DNA of 57,287 nucleotides, taken from positions 1-57,287 of IMG/VR virus record IMGVR_UViG_3300025869_000014. One strand, written 5' to 3'. Position numbers and translations under genes: made by a program. This stretch comes from a virus. Taxonomy: Duplodnaviria; Caudoviricetes. Under the pieces are notes generated by a model. The model saw only the letters and a list, made by a program, of their open reading frames with translations. It was not told the origin of the DNA and did not search any database. Shown here piece by piece: positions 19,948-25,127 of the stretch; the stretch's first letter is position 1, and each line of letters begins with the position of its first letter.

Positions 19948-20181
19948 TTACCCGTCAATGATTAATGTCCGGATTCTACATCAGCAGAAACGCTGATCAC
20001 ATAAACGTGCTACTTGTCAACGTTGACATCTGACAGCAAACATGCCTTTCAAGTTAACATTTATCACTTAATACTTGACACGCATTAGACGCATTCTGAG
20101 CCGATCTGAGGGCTTTTCAGACTACCCTTGATCATGGGTCTACTTATGACAGAAAACGCCTTACAGCGAATACGCCTTATA

Positions 20182-20194
20182 TATCAATGACTTA
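20182..20194 (+). promoter_or_regulatory. IHF-consensus site
   Basis: TATCAATGACTTA matches WATCAANNNNTTR, in the divergent terS/early intergenic region. Confidence 0.35.
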
Positions 20195-20348
20195 CGACAG
20201 GACAATATCTACCACTATATGTAGCTGGTTATTCATGACCTACAACTACGTTATGCACATCAGTGGTGACCGACTTACAGCACCCCAGTAATTAATTGCT
20301 GAACTCCACTGATCACAGTGTTTATTGTCATTTATCATCCAGTGTCTA

Positions 20349-20377
20349 TTGCATGTCACATGTCTATGTGAGATATT
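20349..20377 (+). promoter_or_regulatory. Early promoter TTGCAT-N17-GATATT
   Basis: Upstream of the first plus-strand gene; same motif with same spacing at 25030-25058. Confidence 0.6.
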
Positions 20378-20434
20378 CAAATTCCCCCACGGGACTAACA
20401 TACTTATGTTGCACTGCAACAAGGAGCACTAACA

Positions 20435-20875
20435 ATGTCAACGAGAGCCACTTACAAATTCGTCAGTGATTGGGCGGGCACTCACACTGCTTACATTCAT
20501 CATGACGGTTATCCGATAGGTGCCGCCGGATATTTGAGCAACGATGCGGTTATAAATAAATACAACAGAGATGTAATGACTAATCCAATCATTGCACCGA
20601 TAACCAATATCAACACTTTCATTAGGGCAAACGAGCAGGCTGAGATGACTCAGGATCACGACTCACATGCCGACACTGACTACCGTTACACCATTGCGGG
20701 AACGTACATCATCGCTGAGGAGCGAGTTAAGAAAGATGTCCTTGTTGATTTGGCTGACGTTGATTTTTCTGACTACGGAAGAGAAACATTTAAGACTTTT
20801 TGGGAGGGTGACATCGAAGATTTTTTAATCATTTTCTGCCCTCACGCCGACGATTTGAAATTCATTAACAAATAA
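20435..20875 (+). CDS. Early hypothetical protein (YxHxDGYP motif)
   Basis: 146 aa, AAGGAG SD, MSTRA...YIHHDGYP. Confidence 0.75.
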   Translation: MSTRATYKFVSDWAGTHTAYIHHDGYPIGAAGYLSNDAVINKYNRDVMTNPIIAPITNINTFIRANEQAEMTQDHDSHADTDYRYTIAGTYIIAEERVKKDVLVDLADVDFSDYGRETFKTFWEGDIEDFLIIFCPHADDLKFINK

Positions 20876-20887
20876 GGAAAACAACTA

Positions 20888-21187
20888 ATGGCTACATATA
20901 CAGGCAAACAGGAAATTAGGCGTTCAATCATATCTGAAGCGATGCAGCGGATCATCGGTCAACTTAGCTTGGATCAGCTAAAAGCAATCTATGAGGCTGA
21001 GGAAAATGCATTGCGGGCATCTCAACAGCTAGGCATTAGCGCACAAATAGCAGCGCAGGATGCAGCGAGAACAGTCACTAGAGAAATATTTGCAGGGCTG
21101 TCAGATTACTCAATCGACCGAATGGAACAGGATATTAAAGTATCTGCCCGCGACCTCAATAAAATTAACAAACTATCTGGAGAGTAA
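20888..21187 (+). CDS. Early hypothetical protein
   Basis: 99 aa helical, AAGGA SD. Confidence 0.7.
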   Translation: MATYTGKQEIRRSIISEAMQRIIGQLSLDQLKAIYEAEENALRASQQLGISAQIAAQDAARTVTREIFAGLSDYSIDRMEQDIKVSARDLNKINKLSGE

Positions 21188-21189
21188 GA

Positions 21190-21291
21190 ATGTTATTAAT
21201 TCACCTATGCCTTATCGGATTTGGAATTTGCCTAGGAGGGTCACTGACTGCCCTGTTCCTACTCGACAGGCTGACGGACAACGATGATTAA
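21190..21291 (+). CDS. Small membrane peptide (33 aa)
   Basis: MLLIHLCLIGFGICLGGSLTALFLLDRLTDNDD; GGAG SD; below the ORF-track cutoff. Confidence 0.55.
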   Translation: MLLIHLCLIGFGICLGGSLTALFLLDRLTDNDD

Positions 21292-21345
21292 CTGCACTGA
21301 TGATCGGGGCCGGATACCCCGTGAAAGCCCTCAGGGGCTATGCAG
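21292..21345 (+). ncRNA. Type I hammerhead ribozyme
   Basis: CUGCA[I]-CUGAUGA-U-CGGGG[II]-CCGGAUA-CCCCG-U-GAAA-GCCC[III]-UCAG-GGGC-UA-UGCAG[I']; predicted cleavage after A21340. Confidence 0.85.
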
Positions 21346-21375
21346 AATCCACTGCAATTACTAGGAGTAATTTAT

Positions 21376-22527
21376 ATGTTTAGCAACATTGAAACAGTCA
21401 CACTTAACGAGGCATCTCAGATTATCGAGGCACTATTGCCTGTCAGCAACAAGCCCGTGTTCCTGCATGGGCCCTTTGGCATTGGCAAGTCTGCCATCAT
21501 TAAAGCACTGGCCGTGAGGCTGAATGAAACCACTGGTCAAAACTGGGGCTTGATCGAGATTCGCGCCAGCCAGATAGACAGCACCGACACGCGAGGCATT
21601 CCCGATACTGAGGACAGACGTACATTTTTTGCAACGCCAGACTGGCTACCCCGCGTCGAGCGTGATGGGCAATTTGGCATCGTCTTTCTAGATGAATTGC
21701 TACTTGGCTCAGAGTCCACCCAGCGAGCGTTGTATCAGTTTCTTGAAGGGAAGCTGGGAGACTATGAGTTACCTATTGGGTGGCGAATAATTGCGGCGAG
21801 TAACCGCCCTTGCGATGGCGCTGGTGTACGCGGTCGGCATGACGCTGCGTTGATGACGCGCTTTGAAACTCAACTCAACGTGACCGCTGACCCAGATGAA
21901 TGGAAAGAATACGCGGTACGGGCACCTGTCGATCATCGCGTTGCTGGGCTTCGCAAGAAACTTGGGCTCGATGAAATGCCAGAAGGCTTTCACCCGTTCG
22001 TCGTTGCATTTATGGATTGGAAAGGCAAGCCAACTTTGAAGGGCGATGGCACGATTGATCAGGCTGGTCTGTTACTCGAATACCCTGACGGAGGCATACC
22101 AAAGGGCCATACGGCAGCTGCTCAACCCAGAGGCTGGCACTCAGTTAGCAACATTCTCTATTCATTGCTGCCACATAACCTATTGCAAGCTCCAATAGCT
22201 GGCGCAGTGGGCGTTGGCCCTGCAGCTACATTTATGGGGTTCCTGCAGATTCTAAATAATCTACCGGATGCCAATCTGATCCTCAGGAATCCAGACGATG
22301 CGGATGTGCCGTCAGAGAACGAGTTAGGTACTCGATATGCAATAGCGACCACACTAGCGCAGCGAGTGACCAGCAAGAATATCGACAACGCCGTGCGGTA
22401 CATCAAGCGCATGCATGAGGAATTGCTGTCGGTATTCTTTTTGATAGCGACTAATCGTGACCCCAATCTGCAAGCAACACAGGCTTACATTAATTTCAAA
22501 ATCGAAACTCAATCAACAGTTATCTAA
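21376..22527 (+). CDS. MoxR-type AAA+ ATPase
   Basis: GPFGIGKS Walker A, IVFLDE Walker B, AASNR sensor, PRGW; start ATG 21376 after AGGAG. Confidence 0.88.
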   Translation: MFSNIETVTLNEASQIIEALLPVSNKPVFLHGPFGIGKSAIIKALAVRLNETTGQNWGLIEIRASQIDSTDTRGIPDTEDRRTFFATPDWLPRVERDGQFGIVFLDELLLGSESTQRALYQFLEGKLGDYELPIGWRIIAASNRPCDGAGVRGRHDAALMTRFETQLNVTADPDEWKEYAVRAPVDHRVAGLRKKLGLDEMPEGFHPFVVAFMDWKGKPTLKGDGTIDQAGLLLEYPDGGIPKGHTAAAQPRGWHSVSNILYSLLPHNLLQAPIAGAVGVGPAATFMGFLQILNNLPDANLILRNPDDADVPSENELGTRYAIATTLAQRVTSKNIDNAVRYIKRMHEELLSVFFLIATNRDPNLQATQAYINFKIETQSTVI

Positions 22528-22539
22528 CGGAGATATGTC

Positions 22540-23421
22540 ATGGATAAGTTACAAAACAACGCACTAATCGTGAAGGTTGAATGCACCAAGTGGAGCAACA
22601 CCATCGAAGATAGAAACCTCAGTGTCGAGATCGTCAGCGACAAGAATGCTGAGGCTCGATCACTGAGGGTCATGAAGCCACTCGCCAAAGGGCCAGTGAT
22701 CAAGGAACTCAACAAGCTCATTGGTCAGATTGGCAATCAGGTTGTCCGTCGATGGTGCGTTCCGTGGGACACGGGCAAACACCTTATCGTGGTCGATAAC
22801 CTGAAAAAATTTGAAGATGACCTGAAGGCTAAAAATGACAGGCTCGAAGAGCTTAAGATCGAGTTACGCAACGAATGGCTGAACATCGTCCGCGATGATC
22901 AACTTAAACTGGGCGATGCCTTCAAGGCTAGTGACTACCCTAACGTCGAAGACATCGTTGATAAGTACAGCATCAAGTACAGCCTGTTCCCGATTACGTC
23001 TGGCGATGATGTGCCTGCTCAACTGAGGCTCCCAGCAGAGCGGATCAGACAGATCGAGGCTGATGTCGAAGCTGATGCAAACGAGCGCGTGGAAGCAGGC
23101 ATGAAGGCTATTCACAAGCGTGTCACTAACGTGCTTAACACTTTCATCGATGGCATGGATCGTCACGGCATCAAGGCTCAAGGACAGCAGCGAGCGTCGA
23201 AGTTTAGTGACACAACAGTCACTGCAATCGAGGAACTCGCGGAGACACTACCGCATATCAACCTGACCAATGACCCAGCGTTGACTGAGGTAGCAAACGA
23301 CTTGCTATCTAGAATGCGCGACCTCGATCCGCAGAAACTGCGCGATGACCCCGCTGAACGTAAGAACGCTGCAAAAACTGCTCGCGACATTGCCTCTAAA
23401 CTCAACGGATTATTTGATTAA
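22540..23421 (+). CDS. DUF3150-like helical protein
   Basis: 293 aa; VPW...LI, LGDAFKASDYP, HINLTNDP; between AAA and vWA genes. Confidence 0.55.
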   Translation: MDKLQNNALIVKVECTKWSNTIEDRNLSVEIVSDKNAEARSLRVMKPLAKGPVIKELNKLIGQIGNQVVRRWCVPWDTGKHLIVVDNLKKFEDDLKAKNDRLEELKIELRNEWLNIVRDDQLKLGDAFKASDYPNVEDIVDKYSIKYSLFPITSGDDVPAQLRLPAERIRQIEADVEADANERVEAGMKAIHKRVTNVLNTFIDGMDRHGIKAQGQQRASKFSDTTVTAIEELAETLPHINLTNDPALTEVANDLLSRMRDLDPQKLRDDPAERKNAAKTARDIASKLNGLFD

Positions 23422-23431
23422 GGACACGATC

Positions 23432-24670
23432 ATGACTGTAAAAATAAATAAAGCTAAGAGCCGGATGGTAACTGATCATCCCTTCTATGCCTGCCTCCTG
23501 TATAGGCTCAAGATGGTTGCTTCAGAAGACTTCGATACGATGGCTACTGACGGTAAGAGTATTTTCTACAACCCCGCGTGGGTTGATACGCTGCCTGTCG
23601 CTCAGATCACTGGCGTAATTGCTCACGAGTGCGCCCACGTTGGTCACGGCCATCACTTGAGGAAGGGTGGTCGTAACCACGAGCTATGGAATGTGGCATG
23701 CGACTACGCGATAAACGACACGCTAATTAAGGCAGGGTTTAAGCTGCCTGAAGGTGGACTATTTGATGCCAAATACTCAGGCTGGGCTGCCGAGAAAATA
23801 TATGTGGCGCTTGAAAAAGAGCAGCGTAAAAAGCAACAACAGCAACAGGATGGCGAGCAGGGCGATGATCAGGGTGGTGACTCTCAGGGTCAGTCTACTG
23901 GCAATGCCCCTGCCAAGACTCCGGAAAAAGAATCAGGCTGCAGCTGGGGCGAGGTACTCGACGCTGTCGATGAGTCTGGCGATGCACTTGATGAGGCTGG
24001 CAAGGCCGCTGAACAGCGAGCAATATCTGCCACGCTAAATGAGGCTGAACTTGTCGAGCGCAAGGCTGGCAACACATCCGGCGGTCACGCTAGAGCAATG
24101 ATAGAAACAACCAAGGGTGACATTCAACCGTGGAATGAAATTCTATGCGATGCATTGGTTGACACTATCGTGGTGGATCAGACTTTCGCGAGACCAAACA
24201 GAAGGCTGCATCACAAGGGCATCCGCATGCCAACTGATGTGACCCGACCTACGGGTGAACTGGTCATCGTTGTCGATACGTCTTGTTCATTGGATGATCA
24301 TGAGTTATCGATCATTGGTCATCATGTCGATGACATCGTCGATGCGATTGACCCCACCGGCGTGATCGTGATCTATTGCGACCACACTTTGAACGGCGAG
24401 CCTATCCACTTTGATGCAGGCGAAGAGGTCAAGCTTAGCATTCACGGTGGCGGCGGCACTGCATTCAACCCGCCTTTCAACTGGTGCGCGAGAAACGACA
24501 TCGAACCGCAGGCATTACTCTACTTCACTGATGGTGAGGCTGACGTTGGCCCTAACGCATGGTATGGCAGAGACTTTGAGATGCCTGACTACCCTGTGTT
24601 CTGGATCACCAATCACACTGATCCAGAGTTCTCCGGCTGCGAAGAGTTCGGAGAGATAGTTTACATCTAA
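23432..24670 (+). CDS. DUF2201-type metallopeptidase plus vWA domain protein
   Basis: TMATDG...HECAH...WNVACDYAIN; VVDTSCS MIDAS-like motif and GGGGTAF; start ATG 23432. Confidence 0.85.
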   Translation: MTVKINKAKSRMVTDHPFYACLLYRLKMVASEDFDTMATDGKSIFYNPAWVDTLPVAQITGVIAHECAHVGHGHHLRKGGRNHELWNVACDYAINDTLIKAGFKLPEGGLFDAKYSGWAAEKIYVALEKEQRKKQQQQQDGEQGDDQGGDSQGQSTGNAPAKTPEKESGCSWGEVLDAVDESGDALDEAGKAAEQRAISATLNEAELVERKAGNTSGGHARAMIETTKGDIQPWNEILCDALVDTIVVDQTFARPNRRLHHKGIRMPTDVTRPTGELVIVVDTSCSLDDHELSIIGHHVDDIVDAIDPTGVIVIYCDHTLNGEPIHFDAGEEVKLSIHGGGGTAFNPPFNWCARNDIEPQALLYFTDGEADVGPNAWYGRDFEMPDYPVFWITNHTDPEFSGCEEFGEIVYI

Positions 24671-24704
24671 CTTAGCAGGGGCTACGGCCCCAAAGGAGAG
24701 CGTA

Positions 24705-25064: not shown

Positions 25065-25127
25065 GAGAACTTCACACACTCTCACCTACCTAGCCTAGCC
25101 CTGCTCTTAACGGAGCGGGGCTTTTTT
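25065..25127 (+). ncRNA. Candidate small RNA of about 63 nt
   Basis: Between the promoter copy and a terminator; no start codon or SD. Confidence 0.45.
25097..25127 (+). terminator. Rho-independent terminator
   Basis: AGCCCTGCTC-TTAACG-GAGCGGGGCT-TTTTT. Confidence 0.85.

Follow-up and report, generated by a model that had tools for sequence, protein, structure and literature searches.

A variant type I hammerhead ribozyme with a covarying copy of stem I, proposed to process phage mRNA ahead of an AAA ATPase gene

The virus record IMGVR_UViG_3300025869_000014 (Duplodnaviria; Caudoviricetes) is that of a marine phage, and has been found in the marine metagenomes of several studies. The complete record, 57,287 bases in length, was analysed here and is referred to as the window. 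Directly upstream of its gene for an AAA+ ATPase, positions 21292-21345 of the plus strand hold what, on comparative evidence, is a genuine and previously unlisted hammerhead ribozyme of type I topology. Judged by the changes seen among its relatives, this hammerhead homologue is under selection for its fold, for a pseudoknot and, in one subgroup, for a second copy of the 5' strand of stem I. We consider it likely that the element processes a polycistronic phage mRNA, providing the downstream AAA block with a hairpin-capped leader that begins with a 5'-hydroxyl (5'-OH) and uncoupling that block from its upstream context. The cleavage, folding order and effect on expression that we infer are set out below as a model. 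A preliminary description of this DNA proves accurate apart from one gene label; its functional claim, that self-cleavage releases a separately regulated mRNA, remains an inference.

That description had placed a complete type I hammerhead immediately before the AAA gene, and each of the elements it named is present base for base. The element lies in the 84-nucleotide (nt) gap between a 33-codon open reading frame (ORF) and the ATPase gene, whose ATG start codon is at 21376. It occupies the beginning of this gap, directly after the TAA stop codon of the small ORF (Table 1). The sequence has the core C3-A9, G12 A13 A14, an A15.1-U16.1 pair, a nucleotide other than G at position 17, and ends that open in stem I, all of which characterise hammerheads of this type. 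By standard hammerhead numbering, cleavage is predicted after A17. The single departure is the 10.1-11.1 pair, which is highly conserved but not absolutely required, and which is replaced in the window by U21304 and U21322.

Recognition of the motif alone carries limited weight. Our own descriptor (the core, at least four pairs per stem, and one mismatch allowed at 10.1/11.1) finds exactly one type I motif in the window, and one is also found in 1 of 300 random windows generated from a first-order Markov model. This chance rate is too weak for a scan of very many windows, and comparative evidence must therefore decide. Descriptors for type II and type III hammerheads found none in the window. 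We derived a covariance model, R1, solely from 14 hammerheads that belong to more distant phages; the window and its nearest kin were excluded. Searched with filters off, R1 matches 21292-21353 at 32 bits (E 1.6e-6), while the next best match on either strand of the window scores 9.9 bits. The same model gives 64 matches in 60 near sources, and no match in 100 loci with AAA genes of at most 35% identity (479,421 bases; locus L167 is not among them).

Relatives of the locus were identified through the AAA protein, for which the protein collection contains 43 homologues, the closest of them 95% identical and of equal length (383 amino acids, aa). A search for related loci with the single AAA protein returned nothing, whereas scans with a 27-sequence AAA alignment succeeded, yielding 263 in IMG/VR and 528 among metagenome contigs, with 80 kept from each. 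Fifty-nine near loci were examined, and 57 could be judged, two being too short upstream. In many relatives the descriptor finds type I hammerheads on the gene strand, with differing stem sequences. In 36 of the 57 loci, a type I hammerhead lies no more than 170 nt ahead of the AAA gene, and in 11 the hammerhead found there has the type II order (GAAA, stem III, cleavage site, stem I hairpin, CUGAUGA). The other 10 have neither, and two of these (L052 and L057) carry a type III hammerhead about 100 nt upstream. Counted as distinct upstream sequences, there are 21 of type I and 8 of type II among 38. The presence of three topologies at one syntenic position argues that cutting of the RNA at this point, rather than any particular fold, is what is selected. 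Many relatives have two or three hammerheads around the AAA gene block, and the window has just one.

The stems of these hammerheads covary. Counts were taken from an alignment made with R1 (A5, 34 distinct rows); MAFFT alignments A2 and A3, in which the 3' halves were out of register, were not used for this purpose, and A5 superseded alignment A4, which contains minor errors in two rows and begins a base too late in two more. The pseudoknot was added to A5 by hand and is absent from R1, so that the alignment was not fitted to it. With the pseudoknot included, 94.6% of 706 cells form standard pairs, a figure that falls to 31-41% if the partners are displaced by 1-3 columns; the rows are related, and the cells overstate the number of independent events. 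Changes on both sides are seen in 16 of 22 pairs (15 of the 17 in stems I-III), and the covariation score was reached by none of 500 shuffles. Stem I is 100% paired across the 34 distinct relatives, stem II in 97.1% of cells and stem III in 99.4%, with double changes in four of five pairs in both stem I and stem III. RNAalifold on its own recovers the same three stems, with 16 pairs, 14 of them compensatory. Stem I occurs as UCCAA, CCACA, CCGCA, CCGUA, UCCUA, GCCUA, UCUGA and CUGCA, each with a matching partner. The CUGAUGA core is kept throughout, except in the L054 and L049:2408 rows, and the GAA columns are 90-100% conserved, with one row shifted by one column.

The pseudoknot between GGAU of loop II and the 3' AUCC, raised as a possibility in the preliminary description, gains support from the same alignment. 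The pairs G23-C74 and G24-C73 are found in 28 and 31 rows, respectively. The pair 25-72 is UA in 18, AU in 12 and something else in 2 of the 32 rows with letters at these positions, that is, GGA:UCC alternates with GGU:ACC.

A second CUGCA downstream of the ribozyme had been proposed as a competitor for the 3' strand of stem I, and in relatives this copy does change together with the stem. Where present, it always starts 6 nt after stem I, leaving AAUCCN as the loop. In the window, stem I is CUGCA/UGCAG and the copy CUGCA; in six distinct nearest relatives, stem I is CCACA/UGUGG and the copy CCACA; and in L169, stem I is CCCGA/UCGGG and the copy CCCGA. Four of the five bases are copied in L019 (stem I CCGUA/UACGG, copy CCGU) and in L186 (stem I CCCGA/UCGGG). 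In three full versions, therefore, all three strands vary in concert, as is expected only if both helices matter. Many members of another group, in which stem I is UCCAA, can form a weak UUGG-NNNN-CCAA hairpin instead. Across the family, 17 of 26 distinct 30-nt 3' products can pair at least four of their first five bases, against 8.4 +/- 2.1 (maximum 14) for shuffled tails (n = 200).

Folding predictions are consistent with a leader that is rearranged by cleavage. The 54-nt RNA folds as a hammerhead (-20.2 kcal/mol), and the 38-nt 3' product as two adjacent hairpins (-7.6 kcal/mol). The second of these, formed by AAUUACU and AGUAAUU around the Shine-Dalgarno (SD) sequence of the AAA gene, had been described earlier and is reproduced by folding. 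It recurs in the same place with other sequences in L169 (UGACU-AAGG-AGUCA) and L186 (UGACU-UAGG-AGUCG); in the closest relatives, the hairpin AUUACU-AGG-AGUAAU is identical and hence uninformative. Inspection by eye of the type II group shows the SD flanked by AAUCC...GGAUU and AUUCC...GGAAU. Pairing of the stem I 5' strand with the SD itself (UCCAA/UUGGAG), seen in one group, was considered as a general rule and rejected, as the window and its kin lack it.

These elements suggest the following model. The ribozyme would fold co-transcriptionally, as the polycistronic RNA is made, with the 4-bp pseudoknot between loop II and the tail holding stems I and II together, and would cut after A21340. 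Stems II and III, with a terminal 2',3'-cyclic phosphate, would form the end of the upstream piece, which carries three small ORFs. The downstream piece, encoding the AAA ATPase, a 293-aa protein and a DUF2201 protein, would bear a 5'-OH on its first nucleotide, U21341, which lies 35 nt ahead of the start codon. Its first five bases, UGCAG, once freed, would fold onto the CUGCA copy. This would destroy stem I, so that the cut could not be resealed and the products would part. The new leader would then consist of two adjacent hairpins, one at the 5' terminus and one presenting the SD, and the stability and translation of the AAA block would be uncoupled from the upstream context, as with engineered ribozyme insulators.

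Several observations, besides the relatedness of the aligned rows, weigh against this model. Rfam reports no hammerhead in 21150-21500 even at E <= 10, only two chance matches resembling small nucleolar RNAs (snoRNAs). The copy of stem I is a trait of the subgroup with an AAUCC tail only, and an exact copy is missing from other members with that tail (L013 and L090) as well as from the UCCAA group. The centroid structure of the 87-nt RNA contains stems II and III and the SD hairpin, with the competing hairpin formed at the expense of stem I, under an energy model that ignores the pseudoknot; before cleavage, the pseudoknot would be expected to tip the balance towards the ribozyme fold. One RNA-library contig (X17) crosses the predicted cleavage site, with a loose end, indicating either uncleaved RNA or DNA in that library. 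Lastly, G10.1 contributes to a divalent metal ion site in hammerheads, and the U-U in its place could therefore slow the ribozyme or alter its ion needs. Canonical hammerheads have a highly conserved G-C at 10.1-11.1, according to the part of PMC4209133 available to us, and Perreault et al. rejected candidates mispaired at this position unless activity was measurable (PMC3088659, available portion).

The Rfam result has an explanation in the reach of the models. A search with hammerhead models, suggested earlier as a check, gave a divided answer: Rfam had no hammerhead in the window at its gathering score, while the model from distant relatives matched. The sole Rfam match over 21292-21356 at E <= 10 is the C/D-box snoRNA model snoR60 (13.1 bits), a chance match evidently drawn by the letters UGAUGA and CUGA. 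At gathering score there were likewise no matches in 20 related loci with textbook type I hammerheads. With the cut-off relaxed to E <= 10, RF00163 Hammerhead_1 (threshold 34) gives the two canonical L014 elements no more than 18.8 bits, and RF03152 RAGATH-1-hammerhead (threshold 56.3) gives them 26.2 and 22.4 bits. Since canonical relatives fail too, the negative result carries little weight.

The RNA-side data consist of assembled contigs, which cannot show RNA ends. Parts of the region are present in three runs: two marine metatranscriptomes from a single study and a third that probably sequenced DNA. Contigs of these runs start at 21328 and 21335, and those from the RNA libraries cover parts of the AAA block. 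Contig X17 and the fold of the 87-nt RNA would both suit a conditional switch, in which the copy competes with stem I before cleavage and ribosomes finishing the small ORF cover the 5' strand of stem I. Only a fraction of transcripts would then be cut, depending on the speed of transcription or translation or on ions, with the U-U tuning the rate. The two competing helices consist of identical base pairs, so that loops and pseudoknot would set the balance, and the copy covaries with stem I. The upstream ORFs of relatives end at -16 to +6 relative to the hammerhead (-3 in the window), and in six relatives (L009, L011, L014, L036, L162 and L031) the UGA of the CUGA core (U4-A6) is itself the upstream stop codon. 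However, a hairpin that acts only once the RNA has been cut should show the same covariation, carry-over of DNA could account for X17, and the competitor is missing from most hammerheads of the family (an exact copy is present in 7 of 34 rows, plus L169). With no ligand-like or protein-binding element evident either, a conditional switch appears unlikely compared with the one-way processing of the model above.

The non-canonical U-U at 10.1/11.1 was read correctly in the preliminary description. This family is less strict at that pair than canonical hammerheads: in A5, these positions are GC in 21 rows, GU in 10, UG in 1 and another combination in 2 of 34. The U-U itself is not confined to the window. 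It recurs with different stems at two sites in L052/L057 (L052 3562-3617 and 5983-6040), where it was found unasked. A scan of IMG/VR with a U-U pattern gave 20 matches, of which four are true hammerheads; two of these lie on the L052/L057 contigs and the others in L169 and L186. The pattern fixed positions 10.2, 11.2, 15.2, 16.2 and A17, and the sharing of those letters by L169 and L186 is thus by construction. A strain variant of the window, visible in the loose ends of two contigs, one from DNA and one from an RNA library, has CUGGG/CCCAG in stem II in place of CGGGG/CCCCG, and keeps the U-U. In a narrow literature search on G10.1/C11.1, no paper on a natural U-U at 10.1/11.1 was found. A paper on A6C and one on the structure of a PK-hammerhead concern other variants. 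The supplementary alignments of PMC3088659 may already contain marine sequences of like kind.

A mispair next to the core is a usual ground for rejecting a candidate (PMC3088659, in the portion available), and the window has the lowest R1 score of the 64 matches. The U-U might therefore have killed catalysis, leaving the stems to persist as a structured spacer or as RNA-stabilising hairpins. Decayed cores do occur in the family: L054 (2404-2468) has UUGAUAA and is probably dead, and CCGAUGA (U4 to C) is found at L049 2408-2471, in L049-L051 and L110, the stems being intact in both variants. Yet every other core position of the window is intact, and the decayed core of L054 looks different from the U-U hammerheads. 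Five distinct U-U hammerheads, whose stems I-III differ by compensatory changes and whose pseudoknot is intact, are hard to square with decay, and the close strain variant has changed a stem II pair on both sides while keeping core and U-U. A disabled relic is thus improbable, slightly more so than a conditional switch. Chance resemblance within an intergenic cluster of hairpins, to which the lack of an Rfam match and a fold-energy z-score of only -1.40 for the 54-nt RNA might point, is extremely improbable given the match to the independent model R1, the homologous hammerheads at the equivalent position in relatives and the covariation of the stems.

Processing of the polycistronic mRNA thus remains the preferred account, and the U-U subgroup permits a further, more tentative proposal. 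On L169 (1516-2493, minus strand) and L186 (7914-8777, plus strand), the U-U hammerheads are downstream of ArdC-like genes (ArdcN + MPTase-PolyVal) and before genes without known function. In the stretches examined they are not beside an AAA gene, so that the arrangement is not tied to that gene. It is conceivable, though we would not put it at even chances, that a marine-phage subfamily of hammerheads forms a portable three-part cassette placed before unrelated genes, marked by the U-U, A17, the AAUCC tail, an exact copy of stem I and the SD hairpin, with the 3' strand of stem I re-used as a 5'-terminal hairpin. If so, it would be a built-in one-way switch, in which cleavage is irreversible, the 5'-OH end is capped against decay and the ribosome-binding context is fixed. 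Such a cassette would parallel in nature what RiboJ does as an engineered insulator, and translation of the ORF that abuts it upstream may serve to tune it.

The wider family shows further variation. Type II hammerheads lie about 110 nt before the AAA gene in L016, L017, L056, L091 and L168, and likewise at the syntenic spot in L021-L024 and L055. In those of the first five loci, A9 and stem II are separated by one unpaired U (CUGAUGA-U-GGC, GCC-GAAA), reminiscent of the U-U of the window. Loop I of the type II relatives can form pairs with the tail that follows stem II (UGGCU with AGCCA in L021, for instance). Type III hammerheads are present in the AAA gene block of L009, L011, L012, L014, L018, L036, L089 and L162, in L021/L022, and at L052 2375-2426. 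About 130 nt before the AAA gene, L019 and L020 have a GC-rich, apparently structured stretch in the place of the hammerhead. The descriptors found no hammerhead core in this stretch, and Rfam at gathering score reports nothing for L019; the stretch may represent a different kind of RNA element.

The ribozyme appears to lie inside a plus-strand transcription unit that runs from a divergent start region near 19950-20430 to a terminator-like hairpin, which probably ends the unit (Table 1). The block is flanked by minus-strand genes, including those for terminase and primase-helicase. A consensus scan found no promoter-like site beside the ribozyme, and blastn of 20400-24700 against deposited phages gave no match. 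The small hydrophobic ORF abutting the ribozyme has no family match, and the start of a peptide in L162, MIIQLCLIGFGVC, resembles it. In L162, a type III hammerhead (1536-1590) sits just before this similar ORF, a position at which the window has none. Run X10 includes a DNA contig from which 77 bases within the ORF are missing (window 21192-21270), and some strains may be without most of the ORF. The block downstream had been described as an AAA-DUF3150-vWA trio. Its outer genes do match AAA and DUF2201_N plus DUF2201, which is VWA-like; the DUF3150 label of the middle gene is not supported, as its 293-aa product has no Pfam DUF3150 match even at E <= 10. The true start of the third gene is probably about 30 codons inside its ORF, where tblastn matches begin (residues 30-34). 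Its labels conflict: Pfam gives DUF2201_N/DUF2201, whereas the best PHROG, phrog_1314 (2.7e-82), is annotated 'HNH endonuclease'.

Table 1. Positions of the hammerhead elements and neighbouring features in the window
Feature	Positions	Strand	Basis or remark
Stem I, 5' strand CUGCA	21292-21296	+	Pairs with UGCAG at 21341-21345
Catalytic core C3-A9, CUGAUGA	21297-21303	+	Sequence
Stem II hairpin: U10.1, CGGGG (21305-21309), loop CCGGAUA (21310-21316), CCCCG (21317-21321), U11.1	21304-21322	+	10.1/11.1 is a U21304/U21322 mismatch
Loop II GGAU, 5' half of pseudoknot	21312-21315	+	Complementary to AUCC at 21347-21350
Core G12 A13 A14 (GAA)	21323-21325	+	Sequence
Stem III hairpin: AGCCC (21326-21330), loop UCAG, GGGCU (21335-21339)	21326-21339	+	A15.1-U16.1 is A21326-U21339
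Predicted cleavage site, A17 (21340) / U1.1 (21341)	21340-21341	+	Hammerhead numbering
Stem I, 3' strand UGCAG; also 5' arm of the alternative hairpin	21341-21345	+	Sequence and fold
AUCC, 3' half of pseudoknot	21347-21350	+	Complementary to loop II GGAU
Copy of stem I 5' strand, CUGCA	21352-21356	+	Pairs with 21341-21345; 5-bp hairpin, loop AAUCCA
AUUACU-AGG-AGUAAU hairpin holding SD AGGAG (21363-21367)	21357-21371	+	Folding; AAUUACU/AGUAAUU arms span 21356-21372
ORF	20435-20875	+	Upstream of ribozyme
ORF	20888-21187	+	Upstream of ribozyme
Small hydrophobic ORF, 33 codons (MLLIHLCLIGFGICLGG...)	21190-21291	+	TAA stop (21289-21291) abuts ribozyme (-3 relative to hammerhead start)
AAA+ ATPase gene, 383 aa, first of the downstream block	21376-22527	+	Pfam AAA 2e-05; phrog_1297 ATPase 6.1e-62
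Conserved 293-aa protein without family	22540-23421	+	Syntenic homologues in L013, L014, L019 and L052
DUF2201_N putative metallopeptidase and VWA-like DUF2201 protein	23345-24670	+	Pfam 4.6e-48 and 3.2e-14
Intrinsic-terminator-like hairpin	25097-25122	+	11 pairs, then T run

The locus provides a well-defined comparative set, in which hammerheads of types I, II and III occur at one site before one gene family. It also offers a natural series of U-U variants at 10.1/11.1 that standard filters and Rfam thresholds discard. The covarying post-cleavage hairpin gives rise to a concrete, testable idea of what the cut might achieve for the downstream mRNA. The textbook picture of the hammerhead is unchanged by these findings; it is refined, and a blind spot of current models is exposed.

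The role of hammerheads in phages and bacteria is still described as unknown in the available part of a review (PMC6765202). For prophage hammerheads, a role in processing polycistronic phage RNA has already been put forward (PMC3088659), and is still unproven (PMC6765202). According to the portion of Perreault et al. (2011, PMC3088659) available to us, pseudoknots occur in all three hammerhead types and are predicted for about 40% of all hammerheads, such pseudoknots are needed for fast cleavage in other hammerheads, and several hammerheads flank genes in prophages. The window element resembles the type I hammerheads of phages, prophages and marine metagenomes described there in its core, in its three-stem junction and in the ends that open at stem I. 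A 4-bp pseudoknot similarly replaces loop-loop contacts, and the element lies between genes of a phage operon, a short distance ahead of a start codon, with relatives that have several gene-flanking hammerheads. It differs from the type I hammerheads in that portion by the U-U at 10.1/11.1, by A17 together with G15.2-C16.2, by the covarying copy of stem I 6 nt after the ribozyme and by scores below Rfam thresholds. With respect to RF00163 and RF03152, the canonical elements of relatives align end to end with scores far below gathering, and the window element goes unreported at E <= 10.

A parallel in context is HHphage of the haloviruses HF1/HF2, also a variant hammerhead a few nucleotides before a start codon, that of the first gene of a polycistronic unit (PMC3088659, available portion). 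In HHphage, a mapped 5' end lies within three nucleotides of the cleavage site. Its core variation consists of insertions near C3, unlike the U-U of the window, and host and gene differ.

The proposed outcome can also be compared with the engineered RiboJ, a hammerhead plus hairpin that normalises the 5' untranslated region (PMC7536230, as far as its available portion describes it). On paper, the window element shares with insulators of this type a hammerhead that would remove upstream RNA, a hairpin after the cut and a fixed leader carrying the ribosome-binding site. Unlike RiboJ, it is natural, belongs to a phage and is known from sequence alone, and a second hairpin holds the SD. A further difference is that its first hairpin would be built from the 3' strand of stem I and would form only at the expense of the ribozyme fold.

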